Shown here: piece by piece, positions 11,089-52,505 of the stretch | Position numbering within the stretch: the first letter of the stretch is position 1 | How the letters are laid out: each line of letters opens with the position of its first letter | NCBI GenBank assembly: GCA_013359225.1 | Contig: JABWCG010000001.1 | Span: forward strand, 206,362-270,361 | Direction: 5' to 3' | DNA from: Candidatus Buchananbacteria bacterium | GTDB lineage: Bacteria; Patescibacteriota; Patescibacteriia; Buchananbacterales; UBA6539 | Length of the DNA stretch: 64,000 nucleotides | The notes under the pieces: generated by a model | What the model was told of the DNA's origin: nothing | The model's database searches: none | The model's input: the letters and a program-made list of their open reading frames with translations, nothing else | Translations under genes and position numbers: made by a program

Positions 11089-11117
11089 TTGACAAATTTG
11101 AGCAATTAGGTTAAAAT
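11089..11117 (+). promoter_or_regulatory. Consensus sigma70 promoter driving the GC-rich lipoprotein gene.
   Basis: TTGACA at 11089-11094, a 17-nt spacer, then TAAAAT at 11112-11117. An approximately 240-nt GC-rich leader follows. Confidence 0.55.
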
Positions 11118-11355
11118 GTGGGACTGGCTCACCATGGGTCCAGTTTGTGTTTGCACCTTATAATTTGGGTTATTGATAACAACGAAAAACGACACCAAAG
11201 GAGTGTCACAACAAGAGGAGATGTGCCTATAAGGAGAGCAGGGAAGCTTTGGCAGGACAAGTGCGTAAGGAACATTTCTTGAGCCGCGCGGCTTGAGAGA
11301 TGAGTGTCGAACAACGTGAAACCGAAACGGAAACGAATGAAGAGGAGTGAAACGA

Positions 11356-14300
11356 ATGAACACGATGGTTCGCAACATGATGGTGTGCGTCATGGCGGCG
11401 CTGGTGGTGCTGTTGACCTCCGGCTGCCCGATGACGCCCGATCCGCCCAACCAGCCGACGCAACCGACGTTCGACGTTCGGACCCGGCTGATTGAAGGCA
11501 AAGCCGAAGTAGTGGTCCGCAACACGGACACGCGACAGGTCAGCATTCAGATTCTGGTCCAGGATGACCGTACCGGCGACTACTTTCCCGCGTACGACGA
11601 AACCGGCGACCAGCTCCTGCGCAGCATCATGCAGCCGGGAGTCCAAACCACCGTAACTGGACAGCTTGTTAACCGCACGTATGAAGGTCACCCCGTGATC
11701 GACATCGGCGGCGGCGGAGTTCACAGTTACTGGTGGTGGGATCCGTATGCGCCGCTGTATCTCTACCCGGTTCCGCCCAGCATAAGCGTGGACTGGGAGA
11801 CATACGTGACTGACGAGGAGATCACCATCACCGAAACGACGTTTGTTGACGGTGAAGGGGCGTACTTGGGCGCACAATTCGTGTTGCCCGAAGCCGGACG
11901 CTACATGGTTCGGGTCACTGGTTTTAACGAGCAGAACGTTGAGTTCAAGCCGTTTGAAACCGTGTTGCCTGACTACGATGGAACAACGCCGGACCCGGAT
12001 CCCGAAGACACCGCCGACCTGGAAGTCCTGTACTTCAGCAATTACGGAGACGTCAACGGGTACGTCTATGGCATCGTCCATGGCGTGAATCCGTCGACCC
12101 ACTCCGTCGCGTGCTACATCAACGTCGACTCAATGTGGTGGCCCAAGCCGGATTTCGGCAACGGCGCCTTGACCCCGTTGGAAAATGGCGGTTACTTTGA
12201 GACCGACATTACCACGGGCGGCGACGATCAGCGCGCAACGTTGATCTACTTGGCTGTGGTGCCAAACGGTACGCAAGTGCCGCAGGCGCCCAGCCTTGAC
12301 CAGCCCTACATTCCGGAAGCGCTCACCAGCAAGCTATTGGTGCGTAATCCCGGACCGGTTGAAGGCGGACCTGGCGTGATTGATTTCACTGAAGTGCCCT
12401 ACTACAAGGATCCTGACGGGGTGCTTCGCGGTACGGTTTCAGGAGTCAATTTCGCTGACTATCAAGTCGCTGTCTACATCCTTGTCGAGGGAGTCTGGTG
12501 GCAAAAGCCGGACTGCACCCTCGTCGACATCATGAGCAATGGTTCCTGGTCGGCTGACGTGACCGTGGTGCCAAGCGACGCGAACGCAACGCAGTTCGCC
12601 GCGTTTCTCGTCCCGCGGGGTACTTCAGTACCCTGCACGGTGTATCCGACCAAGAGCAAATCCTTGGTGGCTGGTATTGATATCCCGGGCGCGGTTGATT
12701 ACGTCATCGTGAACCGGGTACCGCATATCGGCCTGACCAAAATTCCGGCCTACGAAGACACGGTCGGTGACCTGCGCGGTATCGTGGAAGCGCTCGACCC
12801 GACGCAGTACGATATCCATACCTTTATCCGGGTTCCCGGTGAAGGCTGGATTGCGAAGCCGGGCTTTGCGCCTGACGACGCGACGGTTGTTGCCGCTGAC
12901 GGTACGTGGTCGTGTGACATCGTTACCGGATTGCCGGGGCAGACCAACGATCATCGGGCAACTGAGATCTGGGTTTTGCTGTTTGGCAAGGGTGTTGAAG
13001 TAACGCCGTGCGGAGACGCTGTTTGTAGCGACCTGAATATCGACACGGTGGTGAACAACGCCAGTGCTGGGATCTGGGTGAATCGTCGTCCGGGAGCGGA
13101 AGATGAAGAACCTATTATCACCATCATCGGCGCAAACCCGGTCACTTTGGCAGTTGGCAGCGGGCCGTATACCGATTTGGGCGCTACGGCGTTTGATACG
13201 GAAGACGGCGACCTGTCGGCAGAAATCGTTACCACCAATGACGTCAACACGTCGGCGGTGGGAACGTATCACGTGAATTACAGCGTGACGGACAGTGCGA
13301 GCCACACGGTGAACGCTTCCCGAACGGTTCACGTGGTGGATACCGTCGGTCCGGTAATTACCGTTTTGGGCGCAAACCCGCTGCACGTGCAGCAGGGAAG
13401 CGGCCCGTATGTTGATCCAGGCGCCACGGCGTTTGACAACTACAACGGTGACATCACCGGCAGCATTGTGAAGACCGGTTCGGTCGACACGAACACTCCC
13501 GGTACCTACACCATTAACTACAGCGTGCAAGACAGCTCCGGCAACTCTGCCAGCGCTTCGCGCACGGTAGTGGTGGATGAGGTGGTCGAGGATCAACCCC
13601 CGGTCATTACGATCTTGGGGTCAAATCCTCATACCGTCCAAGTCTTGAGCGGCCCGTATCCGGAATCCGGTGCGACCGCCCTTGACCCGGAAGATGGGGA
13701 CATCTCGAACCTGATCGGAACCGTGTCCACGGTGGACATGACGACGATCGGTACGTACAACGTGACCTATTCGGTCACAGACAGCGGCGGCCACCCGGTC
13801 CAAGCGGTGAAAGTCGTTTACGTTGTCGACACGGTGGCGCCGGTTGTTGATCCGATTCCGGACCAGTTCCGTTTGGCGCTGGCATCGGGCGACCTTGATC
13901 TCGGTAACTATGGCTACGACGCGTACGACGAGAACGCGACGTGGTCCATCGTACCCGGATACGACACCAACCTGATTTCGGTGAGCTTGTCGGGAACGAT
14001 CCTGACGATCACCGGGAAAAACGTCGGTGGTACAACCGTACTCACCGTGAAACTGACCGATGGCAGTGGAAATTTCACCACGGCCGACATCAACGTCACG
14101 GTTAGCCCCTGCCAAACGGCATTTATCCAGATTACCGCCGAACCCGGCAGTATTGATGGATTTCCGAATGCGGTGGCCGGCGAAGTGTGCGGCGTCGATC
14201 CGTCAACGCATAAAGTAGTTCTGTACGTTCGCGTGCACGATGCGGTGAGCGGTAACGATTACGCTTGGGTAAAGCCGAACTTCGGGGCCGAGAAATACAC

Positions 14301-14505
14301 GGCCATCAATCCGGACGGCACCTGGGAGTCGTCGGTCGCTCCTGACGCCAATACCTGGAAAGAGGTGCGGGCGTACTTGGTTGAAGATGGTACTTCGATG
14401 CCCGACGCTGGGTCAAGTGGTCCAATGCTGTGGAGCGATTTCCTTGGGTTAAACCTGGAAAACACTTCCGGTGTGCTCGGCCTCGCCTTTGTCACCAACG
14501 GGTGA
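11356..14505 (+). CDS. Large surface lipoprotein with tandem DUF5011-like Ig-fold repeats. The gene is compositionally foreign (GC-rich).
   Basis: The start is ATG 11356, with a GAGGAG RBS 8 nt upstream. The ORF track's GTG at 11347 is too close to the RBS to be the start. The signal peptide has a lipobox 'LLTSGC'. Three tandem ~80-aa repeats of the form 'PVITxxGANPxxxxxGSGPYxDxGATAxDxxDGDxxxxIVxTxxVDTxxxGTYxxNYSVxDSxGN...RTVxVVD' are present. Upstream there are four or more repeats of a ~100-aa module with a conserved 'WW.KPD' motif. Sampled lines are 58-70% GC. Confidence 0.8.
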   Translation: MNTMVRNMMVCVMAALVVLLTSGCPMTPDPPNQPTQPTFDVRTRLIEGKAEVVVRNTDTRQVSIQILVQDDRTGDYFPAYDETGDQLLRSIMQPGVQTTVTGQLVNRTYEGHPVIDIGGGGVHSYWWWDPYAPLYLYPVPPSISVDWETYVTDEEITITETTFVDGEGAYLGAQFVLPEAGRYMVRVTGFNEQNVEFKPFETVLPDYDGTTPDPDPEDTADLEVLYFSNYGDVNGYVYGIVHGVNPSTHSVACYINVDSMWWPKPDFGNGALTPLENGGYFETDITTGGDDQRATLIYLAVVPNGTQVPQAPSLDQPYIPEALTSKLLVRNPGPVEGGPGVIDFTEVPYYKDPDGVLRGTVSGVNFADYQVAVYILVEGVWWQKPDCTLVDIMSNGSWSADVTVVPSDANATQFAAFLVPRGTSVPCTVYPTKSKSLVAGIDIPGAVDYVIVNRVPHIGLTKIPAYEDTVGDLRGIVEALDPTQYDIHTFIRVPGEGWIAKPGFAPDDATVVAADGTWSCDIVTGLPGQTNDHRATEIWVLLFGKGVEVTPCGDAVCSDLNIDTVVNNASAGIWVNRRPGAEDEEPIITIIGANPVTLAVGSGPYTDLGATAFDTEDGDLSAEIVTTNDVNTSAVGTYHVNYSVTDSASHTVNASRTVHVVDTVGPVITVLGANPLHVQQGSGPYVDPGATAFDNYNGDITGSIVKTGSVDTNTPGTYTINYSVQDSSGNSASASRTVVVDEVVEDQPPVITILGSNPHTVQVLSGPYPESGATALDPEDGDISNLIGTVSTVDMTTIGTYNVTYSVTDSGGHPVQAVKVVYVVDTVAPVVDPIPDQFRLALASGDLDLGNYGYDAYDENATWSIVPGYDTNLISVSLSGTILTITGKNVGGTTVLTVKLTDGSGNFTTADINVTVSPCQTAFIQITAEPGSIDGFPNAVAGEVCGVDPSTHKVVLYVRVHDAVSGNDYAWVKPNFGAEKYTAINPDGTWESSVAPDANTWKEVRAYLVEDGTSMPDAGSSGPMLWSDFLGLNLENTSGVLGLAFVTNG

Positions 14506-14550
14506 CAATCAATAACCAAACCAACACTCGACTTTAGGGGAGAGTGACAA

Positions 14551-14601
14551 CGCCCTCGCAAGTACTGTTCAACAAGAACGGGAAAGCGAGGGCTCTTTTT
14601 T
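14551..14601 (+). terminator. Rho-independent terminator of the GC-rich lipoprotein gene.
   Basis: The stem GCCCTCGC (14551-14558) pairs with GCGAGGGC (14585-14592). A T-tract TCTTTTTTT follows. Confidence 0.55.
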
Positions 14602-35874: not shown

Positions 35875-35990
35875 ATTAATCTAGTATAGCAAAAAAATAT
35901 TCATCCGGCGATTTTGGACGTGAAACGACCCCGAAGTCTTAAGCAGACATCCGGGGTCGTGGGGGTTGAGACGCTAGGGAGTCTTACTCT

Positions 35991-36344
35991 CTAGCACTCG
36001 TGGGGAGCCGGCAAGAACTTGCCGTGTCTCCACTGTTGGCACCAGGCGATGATAATCGTCGGCGCCGCAAACGCGAAGTGAAGGAACGTAAGGGCAACGA
36101 GGTTGCCCAGGTTGTGGCTGTTACCCGCGAGCCAACCGCGGCGGTGGGTGATGGCACCAGCGATGATGCCCCAGCCAACCTGCGAAACGAGGATGATGAG
36201 CATACCCAGGCCCATCATTTCCGGGGCGAAGATTTCCTTCCCCCAGAACTGCTCGCTCGTGAGCCCGACGCCGACGGCGACGAATGCCGTGAGGTAGGCG
36301 AGCATGAACACGTCGAACAGCGCTGCCGCGATAAGCTTTCTCAT
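35991..36344 (-). CDS. GC-rich (foreign-composition) small membrane protein of 117 aa.
   Basis: An AGGAG RBS lies about 8 nt upstream of the ATG at 36342-36344. Three to four hydrophobic helices are predicted. The sampled line 36121-36180 is about 68% GC. Confidence 0.6.
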   Translation of the reverse strand: MRKLIAAALFDVFMLAYLTAFVAVGVGLTSEQFWGKEIFAPEMMGLGMLIILVSQVGWGIIAGAITHRRGWLAGNSHNLGNLVALTFLHFAFAAPTIIIAWCQQWRHGKFLPAPHEC

Positions 36345-36443
36345 CTGATTTTGCTCCTGATTTCGCCGGATTGCTCAAACTTGAGATTTCCCAAGTTGGA
36401 AGGACCACCCTTCCAATAATCCAGCATTTTCAAAGATAAATAT

Positions 36444-36472
36444 ATTATAACATATAATATAAAAAATGTCAA
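36444..36472 (-). promoter_or_regulatory. Perfect consensus sigma70 promoter on the minus strand, embedded in a 12-bp inverted repeat, driving the GC-rich membrane-protein gene.
   Basis: The minus strand reads TTGACA (36467-36472), a 17-nt spacer, then TATAAT (36444-36449). The surrounding sequence is AAAAAATGTCAA-N6-TTGACATTTTTT. Confidence 0.55.
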
Positions 36473-36502
36473 TACATTTTGACATTTTTTCGCTTATTTT
36501 AT

Positions 36503-36537
36503 TAAAAAACCGCCACGAAAGGCGGTTTTTATTTTTT
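36503..36537. terminator. Bidirectional Rho-independent terminator.
   Basis: The sequence is AAAAAACCGCC-acgaaa-GGCGGTTTTTATTTTTT. Confidence 0.8.
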
Positions 36538-36558: not shown

Positions 36559-36957
36559 TTATTCAGTGGTTTTACCGTCAAAATGTTCCTGTTCGTCGGC
36601 TTGGGCATCTTGCTTAGTTTTGTGGATAACGCCATCACGATGGTTGGGCGGCGAATATAGGGTGTAAAGTTTGAGCGGTTGGTTTGAAGAGGTGTTGATA
36701 ATGTTATGTTTGGCGCCGGATGGGACCACAATAATAAATCCATCGCTAAGCTCATGTTCAACTCCGTCTAAAACGGCTTTACCCTGGCCGGACTCACAGC
36801 GAATGAACTGGTCTAGCTGGTGAATTTCTTCGCCGATATCTTCATTGGGATTTAAGCTCATCACAACCAGCTGGCTGTTTTTGCTGGTGTACAGCACTTG
36901 TCTGAAATTTTTATTTTCCAGGCTCAGTTTTTCAATATTAGTGACGTAGCCTTTCAT
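36559..36957 (-). CDS. Cupin-domain protein.
   Basis: The two-His cupin motifs 'EDIGEEIHQLDQFIRCESGQG' and 'GAKHNIINTS' are present. Confidence 0.7.
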   Translation of the reverse strand: MKGYVTNIEKLSLENKNFRQVLYTSKNSQLVVMSLNPNEDIGEEIHQLDQFIRCESGQGKAVLDGVEHELSDGFIIVVPSGAKHNIINTSSNQPLKLYTLYSPPNHRDGVIHKTKQDAQADEQEHFDGKTTE

Positions 36958-38304: not shown

Positions 38305-38499
38305 TTATTTCTTAAAAGTAAACAAGTCATCAATTGTTGTTTTTAGCGCGACGGCGACATCATGAGCAAGTTTTAACGATGGATTATATTTGCCCTGCTC
38401 CAAAAAAACAATCGTTTCGCGCCGGACGCCGGCTTTTTTTGCCAGCTCTTCTTGGGTAATATTCAAAGCGGTTCGTAATTCTTTGATTCGGTTTTGCAT
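38305..38499 (-). CDS. XRE-family helix-turn-helix transcriptional regulator, 64 aa.
   Basis: '[41 protein letters not shown]' is a canonical HTH_XRE. Confidence 0.8.
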
Positions 38500-38508
38500 A
38501 TGTTTAGA

Positions 38509-39054
38509 TTATCGGCACTCAACATCCGGCGCCGGAAATGAGGGGTTGCCGTGCTGGACCCACTGGCCATTCTGGCAAATCCAGTCATCTTCGCCGGAAA
38601 GCAGTCTGACGCCAAACATAACTGCGGCGGCAAATACTAAACAAGCGATAATAGCGTAGAGGATTTTTTTATTTGAGAATTTAATCTTGTCATGATAGCG
38701 AAAAAGCAGGGCGTAAAGCAGCATTAAAATACAAGTGGAAAACGCTAAAGTCATAGCAATCGGTTCATAGGCCGGGTTTAAATCGCGTTTGGCATAGGCC
38801 ACAAACATTACTATCACCGCCAACCAAGAATACACCTGGATTGCCAGCAGTGCTGCCTTGCCACCGGCGAGGTAGTCACGTTCGTCAGCAATAACTCCAT
38901 CGACTTTACGGCGCAGATAAAACAGCACCACGGCCGAAAGCGTTAAAACGATGATGGGGATAATAAAACTTTTTAGGATAATGGCTTGGGAAAAAACCAT
39001 GGCGATCATAACCGTCGTGATGATTCTGACGGTGCGGTATTGTTTGATTGTCAT
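38509..39054 (-). CDS. Membrane protein cotranscribed with the XRE regulator.
   Basis: Four to five transmembrane helices are predicted. Its stop is 10 nt from the XRE start. Confidence 0.5.
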   Translation of the reverse strand: MTIKQYRTVRIITTVMIAMVFSQAIILKSFIIPIIVLTLSAVVLFYLRRKVDGVIADERDYLAGGKAALLAIQVYSWLAVIVMFVAYAKRDLNPAYEPIAMTLAFSTCILMLLYALLFRYHDKIKFSNKKILYAIIACLVFAAAVMFGVRLLSGEDDWICQNGQWVQHGNPSFPAPDVECR

Positions 39055-39157: not shown

Positions 39158-39940
39158 ATGGTTTATACTGATTACAGTATGGCATACACTATTGGTCAGT
39201 TGGCAAAATTGTCAGGGGTAACAATTAGGACGCTTCATCATTATGATGAAATCGGCCTGCTTTCTCCTGGTAAAAATAGTAAAAATAATTATCGTTTATA
39301 CGAAGAAAAGGACTTGCTTCGTTTGCAGCAAATACTTTTTTTCCGCGAGTTGGATTTTGCCTTGGCCGATATTAAAAAAATAATTGACCGACCGGATTTT
39401 GCAGTGAGCCAAGCCCTGCGTGATCATAAGCGTTTGATTAAACTAAAACAAAAAAGATTGGATAATCTTATTAAGACAATTGATAAAACAATTAATCATA
39501 TGACTAAACAATCAATCATTAAAGACGAAGAACTTTACGATGTTTTTAAAGATAACGACGTTAAGCAATATCAGCAAGAAGTTAAGCGGCGCTGGGGCGA
39601 TACGTCTGCTTATCAACAGAGTATGGCAGAAGTTAGCAAGATGACTAAGGGGGAAATGGAAAAATTAAAACAGGACGCAAAAATTTTTACTCAGAAGTTG
39701 GCCGACGCAATGGATAAAAAAATTGAAAGTCCCGAAGTACAAAATCTAATCAAAGAGCATTATCAAGGAATCAATTTTTTCTATGACTGTTCAATTCCAA
39801 TGTATCGTCATTTGGCTCAGATGTATGTTGATGATAGCCGCTTTACTGCTTATTACGAAAAGTTTCGTCCGGGGCTGGCAAAGTTTGTCCGCGATGCCAT
39901 ATGTTACTTTTGCGACCAAAAAGAAAAAACCTCTGATTAA
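39158..39940 (+). CDS. MerR-family regulator with a TipAS-like C-terminal effector domain.
   Basis: The N-terminal MerR HTH is 'YTIGQLAKLSGVTIRTLHHYDEIGLL'. The C-terminal ~150 aa resemble the TipAS/Mta domain. Confidence 0.75.
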   Translation: MVYTDYSMAYTIGQLAKLSGVTIRTLHHYDEIGLLSPGKNSKNNYRLYEEKDLLRLQQILFFRELDFALADIKKIIDRPDFAVSQALRDHKRLIKLKQKRLDNLIKTIDKTINHMTKQSIIKDEELYDVFKDNDVKQYQQEVKRRWGDTSAYQQSMAEVSKMTKGEMEKLKQDAKIFTQKLADAMDKKIESPEVQNLIKEHYQGINFFYDCSIPMYRHLAQMYVDDSRFTAYYEKFRPGLAKFVRDAICYFCDQKEKTSD

Positions 39941-42447: not shown

Positions 42448-44241
42448 TTACGGTTCAATGCTTGATTGAATTATTAAATCAATAGATTGCAAAAATGTCG
42501 CCGGCAAAATTTTTTTACTCGCTAACATATCATAAAGTCGCTCCAATATAAAAGTCTTTTTTATATCACTTCTTTTTACAAACCCTTTCATTTTTTCCAC
42601 TTTTGTTATTCTGTCAAGAAGTTTAAAATTGTTTAAATCTTGTTTATTTTTCTGATCAAGATTGAAAAATTTTACTCCTTCCTGCAAAAACCATTTTATT
42701 ATTTCATCAACATTTTCCTGAGAAACTAGGGCTTGTTCGATAGAATCTTTAAATATTAAAAAACCGTTGGTCTTGAAATGTTTTTTGGAATATTTGAATA
42801 TTTTTGATGAATCACCTTGAGACTTAAAATTTTTTTTATAGTATTTAATAAATTTATTAAACCCCACCTTGTTTAACTGTTTCATTTGTATTAACTGATT
42901 TTCCAGGGATTCACAAGAATCTTTCCGTGACATAACATCTCCATCAAAACTGATAATGAGTGGGATGTTAAATTGGCTTATGACTTTGTAATAATCAAAA
43001 ATCCTTGAGTAGCCACCATAGGGAATGATAACCGTAGAAAAGTGTTTTCTCCCTCTCAGGGTTTTTTTAATAATTCTATAGTCCGTAAGCCCCTCAACTA
43101 AAATTGCCTTATCTGAAAAAAACAACTCTGACCCAACTACGTCAGTTTTATCATAAATATCGTACAATAGGCGTGATGTAACAGATATTTGAGTGCTTTT
43201 ACAATCACTTCCTTCTTTCCACATCTTTACTACATTCTTATAGTCTTCAGGTCCAAGCTCGTTCACCACTACCGATGAATGTGTGCTGATTATTGATTGG
43301 GTTTCGTCATTTTTAATGTAGTTAAAAATTGCGCGTTGAGCACCGGGGTGCAAAAATATTTCCGGCTCCTCAATCCCCAATATAACAATTGGCTTAGTGC
43401 CAAGCTGATTGGCAACAAATTTGATCAGCGTTATTAAAATAATACTTTGTAGTCCGGTTCCTTGATATTTAAAATTAGTTTTTATATCATCTTTGTTTAT
43501 AAGATGAAGATTAATGGTTTGGCCCATGAGTTCAATAAAATGCTCTTGGTTAAAAATAAATTCAACTTTTTCATTGTTATCAAAATTAAATTCATGCAAG
43601 ACAGACCCTATTAAATCTTCTGAGTCTTTAAATTTTTTATGAAGTATTGACCAAAAATTATTGTATGCTTTGATATATTTCCGAGCTCCTTGAAGGCTTA
43701 GTTTCAAAAATTCTAAAAGAATGGTTTTTTCAATTTCAGTATCTTTAAGTCTTATTGCTGATATCTTTGCAAATTTAACGTTATTTCTAACGGCCTCAAA
43801 TAATTCATTGGCTTTTGACTTTTCCCCGACAAAGGACGTCAGCTTTCCGCGTTTAGATGTTATGCAAATTTTTCTTTTTTGAATTTCATTAAAATTTCTA
43901 GGATATTCAATCTCAACATCCAATACCAAATTGTCGTGCCCTCGTACTTTCCGAAAATGATAGCCTAATTTTCTAGTGAGTAATTTTTTTGTTTTATCTT
44001 TTTCGAATCTGAGCTTAATCTTAGTGGAAGCCCTGTAGCCACGCCCGCCTTTCTGTAACTGTTGAGGATAATCTAAATCAGAATCGTATGGCGCATCATT
44101 AAAAAATAGATCAAGTGCATTTAGTACGGTAGATTTGCCAGAATTATTTGGCCCTACGAGAAGAAGAAAATCTCCTATATTGAAAGCAGCTGAACCGCAT
44201 ATACTTCTATAATTTTTTATCTCTATGGAAATAAGTCTCAT
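42448..44241 (-). CDS. OLD-family nuclease: an N-terminal ABC-type ATPase plus a C-terminal Toprim domain.
   Basis: Walker A is 'LLLVGPNNSGKST'. The signature-like motif is 'YQGTGLQS'. Walker B / D-loop is 'IVILGIEEPEIFLHP'. The H-loop is 'ISTHS'. The Toprim is 'AILVEGLTDYRII...ISFDGD'. The locus is very AT-rich compared with its neighbours. Confidence 0.8.
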   Translation of the reverse strand: MRLISIEIKNYRSICGSAAFNIGDFLLLVGPNNSGKSTVLNALDLFFNDAPYDSDLDYPQQLQKGGRGYRASTKIKLRFEKDKTKKLLTRKLGYHFRKVRGHDNLVLDVEIEYPRNFNEIQKRKICITSKRGKLTSFVGEKSKANELFEAVRNNVKFAKISAIRLKDTEIEKTILLEFLKLSLQGARKYIKAYNNFWSILHKKFKDSEDLIGSVLHEFNFDNNEKVEFIFNQEHFIELMGQTINLHLINKDDIKTNFKYQGTGLQSIILITLIKFVANQLGTKPIVILGIEEPEIFLHPGAQRAIFNYIKNDETQSIISTHSSVVVNELGPEDYKNVVKMWKEGSDCKSTQISVTSRLLYDIYDKTDVVGSELFFSDKAILVEGLTDYRIIKKTLRGRKHFSTVIIPYGGYSRIFDYYKVISQFNIPLIISFDGDVMSRKDSCESLENQLIQMKQLNKVGFNKFIKYYKKNFKSQGDSSKIFKYSKKHFKTNGFLIFKDSIEQALVSQENVDEIIKWFLQEGVKFFNLDQKNKQDLNNFKLLDRITKVEKMKGFVKRSDIKKTFILERLYDMLASKKILPATFLQSIDLIIQSSIEP

Positions 44242-48056: not shown

Positions 48057-49835
48057 TTGCTTCTTTTATTTTTTATGATTAAAACAAACACGAAAAAAAC
48101 TTTTAGATACTATTTTAAAGCCGCCCGAAACCATGTCGCGCTCGGGCTGGTTATGTTTGGTTCAATTATCGCTGCCCGGGTGATTGATCTGATTACGCCG
48201 CTTTATTTGCGGGACTTTTTTAACGTCTTGTCGGGCAGTAGTCCGACTGAGGCCGTGGTTAAAACTCTGATTGATATTTTGATTATTATTTCGGTTTTGA
48301 AGTTTGTGGAATGGCTGATTTGGCGTGTTGCCAATCATGCCGACAGTACCTTTACTTCACGGGTAGCGTTTGATTTAGGTAACATGTGTTTTGCCTATTT
48401 GCATAAGCACTCTTTTGCGTATTTCAATAATAATTTTGTCGGCTCAATGGTGAAGCGCGTCAAGTGGTTTGTCAAAGCTTTTGAAACAATTACCGACCGG
48501 TTCGCCTGGAGCCTATTCCCGCTGTTTGTTGATATTGCAGTGATTTCCGGCGTGTTGTTTTATACCAATTTTTGGCTTGGTTTCGGGGTTTTTGCCTGGA
48601 CGGTGCTTTTTTTGGCCATCAACTGGGCGTTTACTAAATATAAATTGAAATACGACATTGCCCGAAGCGAGGCGGAAACAGTAACAACCAGGGTGTTAGC
48701 CGATACGATTACTAATAGCGCCAACGTGAAACTGTTTAATGGTTACCAGCGCGAGGTCAAGCTTTTCTCGCAGGTGCTTAAGGATTTCACCGATAAACGC
48801 CTCTGGGCGTGGACGCTGGGTAATATTATTGAGGCGGTGCAGGGCTTTTTGATGACCATATTGGAAGTTGGCATTATGTTTTTGGCGGTGTGGTTGTGGC
48901 AGCAGGGCAAGATTACGATTGGCGACTTTATCTTAATCCAGACCTATTTGATTTCAATTTTCATGCGAACCTGGGAGTTTGGCCGGGTAGTGCGAACGAT
49001 CTATGAAAACTTGGCAGACGCCGAAGAAATGACGGTGGTGCTAGAAACGCCGCACGAAATTATAGACGTGCCCGGCGCTAAAAAAATCAAGATTAATCGC
49101 GGTGAAATTAAGTTTCAGAATGTCAGTTTCAATTACCACGAAACCCGAAAATTGCTGGTGAAATTAAACCTTACTGTTGCACCCGGCGAGCGTCTGGCGT
49201 TAGTTGGGCCGTCTGGTGCGGGCAAAACAACTATCACCAAATTATTGTTGCGGATGCATGACTTAACCGGCGGTGTTATCACGATTGATGGCCAGGACAT
49301 TTCCAAGGTTACCCAGGAAAGTTTATGGGCAAATGTTAGTTTGGTGCCGCAAGAACCCGTGTTATTTCATCGGACGTTAATGGAAAATATCCGATATGGC
49401 AAACCAAACGCCACGGATAAAGAAGTTATGGCTTCAGCCAAAGCGGCCAACTGTCATGATTTTATCACCCGGTTTCCGGATGGTTACAATACGTATGTTG
49501 GCGAGCGGGGAGTAAAGCTTTCCGGCGGCGAACGCCAGCGCGTAGCAATCGCCCGGGCGATTTTGCGTAATGCGCCAATTTTAGTCTTAGATGAGGCAAC
49601 TTCAAGTCTGGATTCAGCATCAGAACGCTTGATTCAAGAAGCACTTGATAAGCTGATGAAAGACAAGACGGTCATTGTAATTGCACACCGGCTTTCAACG
49701 ATTCGCAAAATGGATCGCGTGATTGTTATGGACCGTAAAGGTATTGTGGAAGAGGGAACTCACGATGAATTAACCGCCAAAAAAGACGGGCTTTATCAAA
49801 AATTGTGGCAACTTCAGGCCGGGGGGTTTATCTAA
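48057..49835 (+). CDS. ABC exporter with a fused transmembrane domain and ATPase (MsbA-like).
   Basis: A six-helix transmembrane domain is followed by 'GPSGAGKTT', 'LSGGERQR' and 'LVLDEATS'. A terminator at 49863-49910 follows. Confidence 0.85.
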   Translation: MLLLFFMIKTNTKKTFRYYFKAARNHVALGLVMFGSIIAARVIDLITPLYLRDFFNVLSGSSPTEAVVKTLIDILIIISVLKFVEWLIWRVANHADSTFTSRVAFDLGNMCFAYLHKHSFAYFNNNFVGSMVKRVKWFVKAFETITDRFAWSLFPLFVDIAVISGVLFYTNFWLGFGVFAWTVLFLAINWAFTKYKLKYDIARSEAETVTTRVLADTITNSANVKLFNGYQREVKLFSQVLKDFTDKRLWAWTLGNIIEAVQGFLMTILEVGIMFLAVWLWQQGKITIGDFILIQTYLISIFMRTWEFGRVVRTIYENLADAEEMTVVLETPHEIIDVPGAKKIKINRGEIKFQNVSFNYHETRKLLVKLNLTVAPGERLALVGPSGAGKTTITKLLLRMHDLTGGVITIDGQDISKVTQESLWANVSLVPQEPVLFHRTLMENIRYGKPNATDKEVMASAKAANCHDFITRFPDGYNTYVGERGVKLSGGERQRVAIARAILRNAPILVLDEATSSLDSASERLIQEALDKLMKDKTVIVIAHRLSTIRKMDRVIVMDRKGIVEEGTHDELTAKKDGLYQKLWQLQAGGFI

Positions 49836-50063
49836 CTTAAAAATTTTGTTATAATTTAGTTAATGAGAAAACGCCTTCTCAATTGTTTGCGTTTTCTTTT
49901 TATTTTATCTAATTTGAGCCAAATTTTGCTTCACGTGAAACAAAAGATTTTGTGTGATATTTTTAATTAACTATTTTTCTCATAAATCTAGTCTTGAATA
50001 AATTTCTGCCAGTAACTTTTGGTGAAATCTCAAAAAACATCATTTTTTATCTAAATTAAGCTA

Positions 50064-50109
50064 AAATATAGTCATTAAAATTGACTATATTTTATTTTTA
50101 TGGTATAAT
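50064..50109 (+). promoter_or_regulatory. Promoter with a palindromic operator for the GC-rich 156-aa gene.
   Basis: A perfect 11-bp inverted repeat AAATATAGTCA-N7-TGACTATATTT (50064-50092) overlaps the -35 TTGACT (50081-50086). After a 17-nt spacer comes the extended -10 TGgTATAAT (50101-50109). Confidence 0.5.
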
Positions 50110-50212
50110 AATAGTTATGAAGTCTGCAGAAGGGAAAAATCCCTTTTGGCCCTGATATTTCGGGGTAATTTCACAGACTTTACGCTCGTGTTCCAACTTA
50201 TGGAGGCAGGAC

Positions 50213-50683
50213 ATGTTTTTCAGGGTCAATCTGGCAACGTTGGAGGTGGAACGGTTGAATGTTCGTAACCTCTCGGAAGTTCCGGGGGTTAAGAGCAACG
50301 GCCAGCACTACCAGCTCGAAGGTTTCGCCCTCGTTGAGGTGCGAACCCCAAGCTGCGAGATGCTGCTGTTTCATCCGGAAACCCAGTCCAGCAGCGGTCA
50401 CATCGACGTGACCTATCGGCCGCAGCGGCACGACGGTGCCTACGGGGTGGACATGCAGATGTACACTCATGGCTGCGAATTGGACTTCGCCAACGACCAC
50501 TCCTTCCAGTATCACTGGCCGTCGGGTCAGTGGCATCTCTTGATGGCGATCGACGCCATCGAGCAGTTCCTGAAGCAGGAAATCGGCTACACGCCGCACC
50601 TGCGCGAGTACATCGGCCACACCTTCCGGCCCACCCCGCCCAAGCTCGCGAACCTTGAGCCTGGTGAATCGGCCGCCGCCTAA
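50213..50683 (+). CDS. GC-rich (foreign-composition) hypothetical protein of 156 aa.
   Basis: A GGAGG RBS sits 6 nt upstream of the ATG. A strong terminator follows. The sampled line 50401-50460 is about 65% GC. No motif was recognised. Confidence 0.6.
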   Translation: MFFRVNLATLEVERLNVRNLSEVPGVKSNGQHYQLEGFALVEVRTPSCEMLLFHPETQSSSGHIDVTYRPQRHDGAYGVDMQMYTHGCELDFANDHSFQYHWPSGQWHLLMAIDAIEQFLKQEIGYTPHLREYIGHTFRPTPPKLANLEPGESAAA

Positions 50684-50707
50684 TCTAGGCACGGCGGCAA
50701 GCCCCAC

Positions 50708-50752
50708 GAAGCGCTCGTCTCACTCCCAGAGATCGAGCGCTTCTTTCTTTTG
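50708..50752 (+). terminator. Rho-independent terminator.
   Basis: A perfect 10-bp stem GAAGCGCTCG/CGAGCGCTTC has a 16-nt loop and is followed by TTTCTTTT. Confidence 0.85.
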
Positions 50753-50816: not shown

Positions 50817-52505
50817 ATGAAAATACTCAAATCAAAGCTATTTTGGTTAGCTCTTGTTGTCGTTATCGCCGTCGGCGGTTTTGTTTTTGTAAAACTTGGC
50901 AGTCAAAAGCCAACTGTGGAATACCAGACTGAAGAAGTTAAACAGGGTCTTTTGGTACAGACCGTTTCTGCGACCGGACAGGTTAAGTCGGCACAAGATA
51001 TTGAACTTAACTTTAAAAATACCGGCCGGCTGAGTGTTTTAAATGTTAAAACCGGAGATAAAGTCACCAAAGATCAGGTCTTGGCTCAGCTGCGTTCAAC
51101 GGATTTGGCGATTAATGTCAGCAAGGCGCGTGCCAGTCTTGACGAGGCGGTCGCAAACTTAAATCGCGTTAAAGCCGGCGCTACTACTGAAGACATTGCC
51201 GTTTATGAAGCGGCGGTAAAAAAAGCGGAAACTGATTATTATAATGCCCAGACTGAGCTTGAGAGTACTAAGGAAACCTATAGTCAGGCTTCAGAAAATG
51301 AACGTCAGAGCGCTTTAGTGGATATTAGTGGTGCGCTGACCAAGGCTAATATTTCGCTGCAAAAGGTTTATGACACCTTGAACTACAAAGGTAACGCGAA
51401 CAATTTTAACACTTCAAATTTCACGTTCCATCAGCAGGTCCAAAACGAATACACCAATTCAGTTTCGGCGGTTGATGAGGCGGAACTAGCATATGGAACC
51501 GCAAAACTTGATGCTACACCCGAAAAAGTGAACGAAGCTGTTCAGAAAGTATTGGCGGCGCTAACCGACACATTGGCCACTGTTAGCGATTTATCAAGTT
51601 TGCTTGATGATGTAATTACCAACAGTAATTTGACTCAAACAGAACTTGATGCCTTAAAAACAACCATTAATACCGAGCGGACAACTACCAACGCCAGCCT
51701 GAGCACTATTCAAAGCGCCAATCAGGATTTGATTGATGCCAGCCTTAATTACCAGACTAAGGTTCAGACGGCGGAAAATAACGTCAGCACCACTCAAAAA
51801 ACATTAGCGAAGGCTGAGGCTGACTTAGCTTTGCGCAAAGCGCCGGCCCGTCCGGAAGACGTGGCGCTGTATCAGGCACAGGTTAACCGCGCCCGAGCCG
51901 ATCTCCAATTGGCTCAGGAGCGATATGATGAAACAATTATCAAGGCTCCGATTGACGGCGTAGTTACCGATGTGAACTATAGTATCGGTGAGCAGACCAG
52001 CCTGAGTGAACCGGTGATCATGATGTTAGCGGCGGAGAATTATCAGATTGAAGTTGATATTCCTGAATCAGATATCGTGAAGATTAATGTCGGCGACGAT
52101 GCTAATATTACGTTAGATGCTTTTAGTTTTGAAGAAATTTTTAACGGCACGGTCACTACAATCAACCCAGCCCAAACAGAAATCCAGGATGTAATTTATT
52201 ACCGGGTAACTGTAACATTTACCGATAGCCAGCCAGAAAACGTTGCTGCTTTAATGGAAAAGATTAAGCCTGGTATGACCGCTAACATTGATATTAACAC
52301 CGACCGACGACAAGATGTTGTTATTGCACCGCAGCGTGCTATTAAGGATGACGCCGGCGTTAAATATGCTGAAATTTTAGAGGCCGGCGTGCCAAAGCGT
52401 GTTGAGGTAACACTCGGCGTTCGCGGCGATGACGGCCTGATCGAAGTTATTAGCGGGTTGATGCCTGGTCAACAGGTTATCACGTTTGTTCGCAACGGCA
52501 AGTAA
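50817..52505 (+). CDS. HlyD/MacA-like efflux periplasmic adaptor with a long coiled coil.
   Basis: An N-terminal transmembrane anchor, a biotinyl/lipoyl-like 'VKTGDKVTKDQVLAQL' and a very long central coiled coil are present. Confidence 0.7.
   Translation: MKILKSKLFWLALVVVIAVGGFVFVKLGSQKPTVEYQTEEVKQGLLVQTVSATGQVKSAQDIELNFKNTGRLSVLNVKTGDKVTKDQVLAQLRSTDLAINVSKARASLDEAVANLNRVKAGATTEDIAVYEAAVKKAETDYYNAQTELESTKETYSQASENERQSALVDISGALTKANISLQKVYDTLNYKGNANNFNTSNFTFHQQVQNEYTNSVSAVDEAELAYGTAKLDATPEKVNEAVQKVLAALTDTLATVSDLSSLLDDVITNSNLTQTELDALKTTINTERTTTNASLSTIQSANQDLIDASLNYQTKVQTAENNVSTTQKTLAKAEADLALRKAPARPEDVALYQAQVNRARADLQLAQERYDETIIKAPIDGVVTDVNYSIGEQTSLSEPVIMMLAAENYQIEVDIPESDIVKINVGDDANITLDAFSFEEIFNGTVTTINPAQTEIQDVIYYRVTVTFTDSQPENVAALMEKIKPGMTANIDINTDRRQDVVIAPQRAIKDDAGVKYAEILEAGVPKRVEVTLGVRGDDGLIEVISGLMPGQQVITFVRNGK

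Follow-up and report, generated by a model that had tools for sequence, protein, structure and literature searches.

How does a small, GC-rich gene come to stand under a consensus promoter in an AT-rich genome? We address this question for a 64,000-nucleotide (nt) stretch of the genome of Candidatus Buchananbacteria, an uncultured bacterium. This whole stretch is henceforth referred to as the window. Its minus strand contains an open reading frame (ORF) of 117 amino acids (aa), named here ORF117, which a preliminary description had interpreted as a recent foreign insert or the product of a palindrome-mediated insertion. We propose instead, with a probability of roughly 0.55, that ORF117 is the cargo of a recurrent, self-contained and tightly controlled accessory-gene cassette, similar to the morons of phages, that occurs here and in other AT-rich metagenome contigs. 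The coordinates of all features are given in Table 1.

We assessed whether ORF117 is a gene. The block had been described as 68% GC. It is indeed GC-rich, but that figure is valid for single 30-nt lines only (these peak at 0.73); the richest 200-nt segment reaches 0.635 and the ORF itself 0.61. The surroundings are far less GC-rich, as had been noted, with a window mean of 41.9%. The GC content of ORF117 by codon position is 0.58/0.43/0.82, which indicates a real gene with GC-biased codon usage. Its GC content at third codon positions (GC3) of 0.82 compares with 0.29-0.53 in the surrounding genes, and it is one of three GC3 outliers among about 60 ORFs of the window, two of which carry the cassette frame described below. 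NCBI lists the identical protein, annotated as hypothetical, from a Candidatus Buchananbacteria metagenome-assembled genome. When 1.84 billion cluster representatives were scanned exhaustively with HMMER, only 19 relatives emerged (E < 1e-3). All but one of these are 72-142 aa long, and the remaining one is a short stretch within a 1056-aa protein. The relatives cover essentially the entire query in the alignment, the full-length homologues being 109-142 aa, and they share the motifs Q..WG..AG in the second transmembrane (TM) helix, RRGW in a cytoplasmic loop and GKF(F/L)PxPxEC in the C-terminal tail. A membrane protein with three to four TM helices had been suggested; hydropathy and an AlphaFold2 (AF2) model both give three, the model being a three-helix bundle with a predicted local distance difference test score (pLDDT) of 94.4. 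The full-length relatives, the shared motifs and the confident model together argue that ORF117 is a real gene. The family of 19 members has no consistent match in Pfam, NCBIfam, PHROG or PADLOC and no profile match to CrcB, SMR, holins or Pfam domains of unknown function; the other cargo proteins likewise gave no consistent match in these libraries. A Foldseek search of the AF2 model against PDB and BFVD returned nothing below E = 0.4. By these comparisons and predictions, ORF117 is a genuine gene of a rare, uncharacterized family of membrane proteins.

To place the composition of ORF117 in context, we recovered the loci of 12 homologues. In flanks of 30-46% GC, homologues with 28-42% identity to ORF117 are themselves 48-59% GC, with GC3 values of 0.57-0.79. 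Across the family including ORF117, gene GC ranges from 0.46 to 0.61 and GC3 from 0.57 to 0.82, in flanks of 0.30-0.53 GC. GC-richness is a family trait that travels with the cargo in whatever host. The gene neighborhood of the family member differs in almost every contig. No homologue was found in phages (motif scan of IMG/VR; tblastn including INPHARED) or among plasmids (tblastn), and a protein-motif scan of 185,579 GTDB species genomes returned no relative, so no GC-rich donor can be named. One contig, L001, belongs to a close relative of the organism. There, too, the GC-rich gene with its promoter, leader and hairpin stands at this site beside the cupin gene, which is 86.5% identical to its window counterpart at the nucleotide level. 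The leader is 94.6% identical between the two and the intergenic and promoter stretch 81%. We rejected a 145-aa gene at positions 583-1020 of L001 as an artefact, since a 1-nt indel puts a non-conserved leader AUG in frame; the product is 117 aa.

The family loci share a layout of upstream terminator, promoter, leader of about 50-125 nt, stand-alone gene and GC-rich hairpin. A promoter of the form TTGACA-N14-TGN-TATNNT precedes the gene at most of them; the spacer is 18 nt at one locus, the −35 box reads TTGACT in L013, and L012 lacks a promoter. In L012 (1-305, 889-1371) the family gene retains its leader, and a 52% GC ORF ends one base before that leader. The ORF117 promoter is, as had been described, a perfect TTGACA-17-TATAAT with an additional TG, and it is the best copy of this type in the window. 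The window contains two exact matches to the pattern, the ORF117 promoter among them, and five sites within one mismatch where 0.57 are expected, which suggests that the organism uses this promoter type. The reported inverted repeat over the −35 box is also perfect (AAAAAATGTCAA-N6-TTGACATTTTTT), with longer arms of 19 nt that are 84% complementary. The palindrome has the −35 hexamer inside its promoter-side arm and is centered about 39 nt before the predicted start of transcription. L001 retains the palindrome with one mismatch. The AGGAG ribosome-binding site was found as described.

The gene had been said to be bracketed by two hairpins. The one on its 3′ side stands, and that on the other side is real but belongs to the upstream cupin gene, which it is predicted to terminate; it forms the 5′ border of the cassette and is conserved in L001. 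The 3′ hairpin has no T-run and is not called an intrinsic terminator, whereas the hairpins of homologous cassettes have T-runs. The 91-nt 3′ region has a predicted folding energy of −36.3 kcal/mol (z = −4.7), and a smaller hairpin over the stop codon is kept in L001 despite a 4-nt indel. Homology between the window and L001 stops a few bases past the 3′ hairpin. The tail of this hairpin is common to the window (35915-35931) and L012 (735-760), and occurs in the form GGGTCGTTTCRCG in L010 (3520-3540) and L042. Cassettes with proteins of only about 30% identity share a conserved 3′ arm and tail. These observations agree with the earlier view of the coding sequence as compositionally alien and as a predicted stand-alone unit with its own consensus promoter, ribosome-binding site and closing hairpin.

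Between promoter and gene lies a leader whose minimum free energy (MFE) fold is a three-way junction, with stem P1 enclosing P2 and P3. The GGAAGG/CCTTCC leader hairpin noted earlier is real and corresponds to P2 (36397-36415); its loop is five, not six, nucleotides long, and it is one stem of the junction. Eight leaders independently adopt the same MFE topology. A covariance model (CM) trained on three leaders only (window, L001 and L027) detected those of L012, L007, L010, L002 and L042 (E = 1e-6 to 1e-3), and a second-round model found L011 and L004, both of which are outside its training set. In the CM-derived alignment of 10 leaders, 93.6% of the cells are paired and 15 of the 21 pairs changed on both sides. 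When the partners were slid by 1-3 columns as a control, 32-52% of the cells paired and 2-5 pairs had changes on both sides; none of 500 shuffles reached the observed values. P1 and P3 covary freely; in P2 the sequence itself is conserved (GRAGG, loop (N)UGKU, CCUYC). The junction strands J12, J23 and J31 are short and variable in both length and sequence across the 10 leaders. The variable junction strands and the conserved P2 argue against a classical metabolite pocket, and the pattern of sequence conservation favors a protein- or ribosome-related role, or a role in mRNA stability. A search of Rfam 15 with the block and both leaders of the window at permissive thresholds matched no family (only terminator look-alikes and noise were returned), and we found no description of the motif in the literature searched. 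The Shine-Dalgarno (SD) sequence is free in the MFE fold of the ORF117 cassette and partly paired in that of a second cassette described below. The anti-SD-like strand of P2 could pair with the SD sequence; no specific covariation for such a pairing was seen. We also considered the leader AUG as the start of a leader peptide and rejected it, as neither its frame nor its sequence is conserved and it is missing from several leaders. Of note, a pattern scan for the promoter plus P2 mostly returned an unrelated hairpin family of gut metagenomes. This large family (contigs L017-L024 and L029-L039) has a conserved TTGACAAAAC...TGCTATAAT promoter, then a GCATAAAGGTGTTCCTTT hairpin and then a second ...CGTTCCTTT element.

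The window contains a second cassette of the same design, with a palindrome, promoter, junction leader, GC-rich ORFan and terminator. Both cassettes have a perfect 12-bp inverted repeat within arms of 19-20 nt at 84-85% complementarity, located at the same distance from the promoter, with the −35 box in the promoter-side arm of each and the center about 39 nt ahead of each predicted start. The arm sequences differ (AAAAAATGTCAA for ORF117 versus AAAATATAGTCA for the second cassette), and the two palindromes are kept in the relatives L001 and L045, respectively. The palindrome is an internal part of the conserved unit, and the second cassette carries one of different sequence in the same place. 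It therefore looks like an operator for a dimeric regulator acting on the consensus promoter rather than an insertion scar, which leaves the palindrome-mediated insertion unsupported. L045 is the only relative of the second cassette. Its protein is 57% identical and its leader about 90% (CM E = 0.024); a compensatory change of C-G to U-A is found in P3. The 3′ hairpins of the two window cassettes are unrelated to each other. Neither cassette is repeated elsewhere in the window, and a diversity-generating retroelement or internal repeat as a source of variability was rejected on that ground. A TTWAGCTAAAATA box that lies upstream of several cassettes was likewise set aside, because it is exact in the window at the second cassette only and is not enriched.

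Replacement of cargo is seen at a RecJ / cassette / NUDIX locus that is syntenic between L010 (2889-3560) and L042 (3960-4800). The flanks, promoter, leader and 3′ hairpin are about 80-90% identical. The cargo of L010 is a 123-aa member of the ORF117 family and that of L042 an unrelated 183-aa ORFan with a signal peptide (GC 0.55, GC3 0.73), for which a PDB sequence search returned only noise. One breakpoint of the swap is no more than a few bases from where P1 ends, and the other some 10 nt ahead of the hairpin. The L042 record is labelled 'uncultured Gammaproteobacteria', which looks doubtful at 39% GC (8 kb fetched). A screen of all fetched DNA for the promoter followed by the three-way junction yielded 11 cassette leaders from about 7-8 independent loci, and the DNA downstream of all 11 has a GC content of 0.49-0.61. 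The same screen returned one unrelated gut-metagenome locus (two contigs) with a downstream GC of 0.31. As judged from these alignments, the loci show one predicted frame (promoter, leader, hairpin) carrying unrelated GC-rich cargo.

We computed synonymous divergence (dS) and the ratio of nonsynonymous to synonymous divergence (omega) using the Nei-Gojobori method. Between the window and L001, the cupin gene has a dS of 1.06 and an omega of 0.02, and ORF117 a dS of 0.22, five-fold below that of the adjacent cupin gene, and an omega of 0.37. The replacements in ORF117 cluster in TM1 and the first outside loop. For the cargo of the second cassette, compared with L045, dS is 1.24 and omega 0.30; GC3 is 0.69-0.79 in both copies although synonymous divergence is saturated. 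The omega values of 0.30-0.37, set against 0.02, indicate that the cargo evolves fast at the protein level. The cargo was either exchanged between lineages after their divergence or is constrained at synonymous sites.

Table 1. Positions in the window of the two cassettes and of other features mentioned in the text
Feature	Position	Strand	Remarks
ORF117 cassette
3′ hairpin, tail GGGGTCGTTTCACGTC	35925-35960	-	15-bp GC-rich stem; 3′ border of the unit
Small hairpin over stop codon	35973-35995	-	
ORF117, 117 aa	35991-36344	-	GC-rich; predicted membrane protein, 3 TM, N-in/C-out; uncharacterized family
SD sequence AGGAG	36354-36358	-	9 nt before ATG; unpaired in MFE fold
Three-way-junction 5′ leader	36365-36425	-	MFE fold, z = −2.8; CM matches; covariation
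Leader P1	36418-36425 / 36365-36372	-	
Leader P2	36409-36415 / 36397-36403	-	SD-like / anti-SD-like pair
Leader P3	36390-36396 / 36379-36385	-	
Promoter TTGACA-17-TATAAT, extended −10 TG	36444-36472	-	Sigma-70-type, 12/12 matches; −35 at 36467-36472, −10 at 36444-36449; predicted start near 36437
Inverted repeat, perfect 12-bp core	36454-36497	.	Candidate operator; core 36461-36490, arms 36461-36472 / 36479-36490
Upstream terminator hairpin	36505-36530	-	10-bp stem between A and T runs; −14.9 kcal/mol, z = −4.1
Cupin gene	36559-36957	-	
Second cassette
Second cassette	50040-50745	+	Same design as the ORF117 cassette
Palindrome	50055-50101	+	Perfect 12-bp inverted repeat
Box TTAAGCTAAAATA	50056	+	
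Promoter TTGACT-17-TATAAT with TG	50081-50109	+	
Three-way-junction leader	50118-50182	+	z = −5.0
156-aa ORF	50213-50683	+	Unrelated to ORF117; GC 0.61/0.38/0.79 by codon position
Terminator hairpin	50708-50743	+	
Other genes
1052-aa secreted/surface protein	11347-14505		GC 0.58, GC3 0.70
XRE / DUF2178 pair	38305-39054		
MerR/TipAS regulator	39158-39940		
OLD-family nuclease	42448-44241	-	32% GC
ABC transporter	48057-49835		
HlyD-type membrane-fusion protein	50817-52505		

The alternative that survives best is a native, non-mobile regulon: the cassettes would be inherited vertically under one regulator and leader, GC3 would be held either by biased gene conversion or by selection, for instance on the stability, structure or decoding of the mRNA, and differences in cargo would be ordinary gene turnover. 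The shared promoter, palindrome and leader fit this scenario, as do the locus common to the window and L001, the retention of high GC3 by the second cargo at saturated dS and the failure to find a homologue in any GC-rich organism, phage or plasmid. The changing neighborhood of the family gene does not fit it, nor does the clean cargo replacement inside the L010/L042 locus, and the low dS of ORF117 relative to its neighbor suggests a later exchange. To our knowledge, there is no precedent for selection that maintains GC3 about 0.4 over the host level across unrelated proteins. We consider a native regulon less probable than the accessory cassette, though by no means negligible. A bolder reading, which we regard as speculative, is that of an undescribed cassette-exchange system, in which an expression frame of operator, consensus promoter, junction leader and 3′ hairpin, dispersed in the chromosomes of such AT-rich uncultured bacteria, would host interchangeable ORFans. 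The junction and the hairpin would then mark the borders of exchange, in addition to or in place of a role in RNA regulation, and the cargo would be drawn from a pool of 50-60% GC whose carrier is unsampled.

An integron-like capture is improbable. Here the leader (attI-like) and the 3′ hairpin (attC-like) would act as single-strand recombination sites, between which a site-specific recombinase encoded elsewhere would insert promoterless GC-rich ORFs. The breakpoints at the L010/L042 locus, the 3′ tail GGGTCGTTTC conserved across cassettes and the diverse ORFan cargo are what such a process could leave behind. The hairpin region, however, lacks the RYYYAAC / GTTRRRY core sites (neither GTTTCAC in the hairpin tail nor TCTCAAC in the upstream box fits), the surrounding ~8 kb encode neither an integrase nor a transposase, only single cassettes and never arrays were seen, and the two 3′ hairpins of the window are unrelated. 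The G-U pairs and the position of the leader in the 5′ untranslated region also suit an RNA element.

The account given in the preliminary description, a foreign gene acquired once and recently via the palindrome and then supplied with, or selected for, a strong host promoter, now appears very improbable. The sharp compositional contrast is real, and synteny with L001 breaks right after the 3′ hairpin. That description had itself named the same high-GC gene at this locus in all relatives as evidence for an ancient gene rather than a recent insert, and L001 holds this gene at the same site, together with its promoter and leader. Homologues at 28-42% identity share both the GC-richness, in AT-rich contigs, and the promoter architecture; the palindrome belongs to the conserved unit and has its equivalent in the second one; and no donor lineage could be detected. 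Finally, that the block is a structured non-coding RNA with the ORF as a by-product is scarcely credible: GC-rich islands in AT-rich genomes are often RNAs and the block has long ORFs in several frames, but its strong three-base periodicity (GC3 0.82, GC2 0.43), its full-length protein homologues with shared motifs, its confident AF2 model and the empty Rfam search all oppose this.

Several observations weigh against the recurrent accessory-gene cassette that we prefer. The L008 homologue is not enriched in GC (gene 46%, flanks 53%), and in the family members L008, L013, L014 and L015 the leader is short and lacks the junction. The palindrome over the −35 box is confined to this lineage and was not seen at more distant loci. 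The second-cassette leader scores only 13.4 bits with the CM; its E value is 2.6 across the window and falls to 0.012 only when the search is targeted to 301 nt. The leader alignment that was counted is fitted to the structure, and its 10 sequences represent about 7 independent lineages that were mostly gathered via the protein family. We found no vector, recombinase or empty frame, so mobility is deduced from distribution only, and the functions assigned to the promoter, operator and RNA are read from sequence.

According to the recurrent-cassette reading, each unit consists of an insulating terminator, an operator-like palindrome over the −35 box, a near-consensus promoter, a leader of about 60 nt, the SD sequence and a GC-rich, fast-evolving ORF, with one strong hairpin or two at its 3′ end. 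A dimeric DNA-binding protein would occupy the palindrome and keep the strong promoter shut, the nearby XRE (38305-38499) and MerR/TipAS regulators being the first candidates. The leader would act after transcription, on mRNA stability or translation, and would probably be read by a trans-acting factor at the sequence-conserved P2 rather than serve as a metabolite riboswitch. Horizontal transfer and recombination inside the conserved frame may spread the cassettes and replace their cargo, in the manner of phage morons.

We compared the cassette to known systems. Morons are defined as independent transcription units with their own promoter and terminator and a GC content unlike that of neighboring genes (PMC3594210). 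The ORF117 unit resembles them as a single small accessory gene with a predicted promoter of its own, a closing hairpin, atypical GC and a membrane-protein product, and the moron gene 15 of phage HK97 also encodes a small inner-membrane protein. In contrast to phage morons, the cassette lies outside any phage or prophage among housekeeping genes, and no homologues turned up in phage collections; because it is not inside a phage, it is not a member of the moron class. It also has a conserved structured leader and an operator-like palindrome that are not part of the moron definition, and its GC offset is a stable family trait. With integron cassettes and solitary attC sites lacking an integrase it shares the short single-ORF unit, the 3′ hairpin element and a diverse ORFan cargo that can be exchanged at a single position behind a fixed promoter. 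It differs from them in that each unit has its own promoter and a transcribed three-way junction as its 5′ element, and in the lack of attC core sites, integrase and arrays.

Small membrane exporters controlled by riboswitches or leaders, such as fluoride/CrcB and guanidine/SugE, offer another comparison. They likewise have a structured, covarying 5′ untranslated region before a membrane-protein gene of about 110-120 aa. The leader described here matches no Rfam class, is conserved in its P2 stem and poorly so in its junction nucleotides, and also precedes non-membrane cargo; ORF117 is neither CrcB nor SMR. Bacteriocin immunity proteins are encoded in loci with ABC transporters and HlyD-type accessory proteins. 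They resemble the family in being small, polytopic, fast-evolving membrane proteins beside ABC/HlyD-family genes (as in L002, L004 and L012). ORF117 itself is about 12 kb from the exporter genes of the window, no bacteriocin gene was identified, and the protein has no sequence or fold similarity to known immunity proteins. What is new relative to these systems is the conserved three-way-junction leader, the operator-like palindrome and the apparently exchangeable GC-rich cargo.

The neighbors of ORF117 are cupin, GIY-YIG, Na/Ca exchanger, GreA, GAF and BipA genes, and the ~8 kb around the cassette contain no phage gene. Four to five cassettes adjoin ABC/HlyD-type exporter genes (L002, L004, L012 and the second cassette with L045). 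The second cassette sits between the genes of an ABC transporter and an HlyD-type membrane-fusion protein. The family genes of L012 and L002 lie directly upstream of a gene homologous to this membrane-fusion gene, and that of L004 adjoins an ABC transporter. The cassette proteins could be substrates or partners of the exporters, or immunity factors. Exporter adjacency is the sole functional lead for them; on its basis we tentatively suggest that the ORF117 protein is an envelope-located protective or immunity-type partner of an ABC/HlyD-type exporter.

Elsewhere in the window, an AT-rich gene encodes a defense-type OLD-family nuclease (AAA_15/AAA_21 and OLD-like TOPRIM), near a MerR/TipAS regulator and an XRE / DUF2178 pair. 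The third GC-rich outlier of the window encodes a 1052-aa secreted or surface protein with three Bact_surface_Ig-like domains (region 11090-14560). It has its own TTGACA-17-TAAAAT promoter and a GC-rich leader of about 240 nt without a three-way junction (z = −0.8).

If true, our reading adds a cis-regulatory RNA motif and a family of small membrane proteins to the candidate phyla radiation, in which almost no regulation is known experimentally. The unit of promoter, three-way junction, GC-rich ORF and hairpin is searchable and could serve to catalogue accessory or interaction genes in episymbiotic bacteria, and its adjacency to exporters provides a concrete functional hypothesis. A GC3 that is stably raised by about 0.4 in unrelated cargo genes, for which no GC-rich donor is detectable, calls into question the view that atypical GC content reflects recent transfer followed by amelioration.

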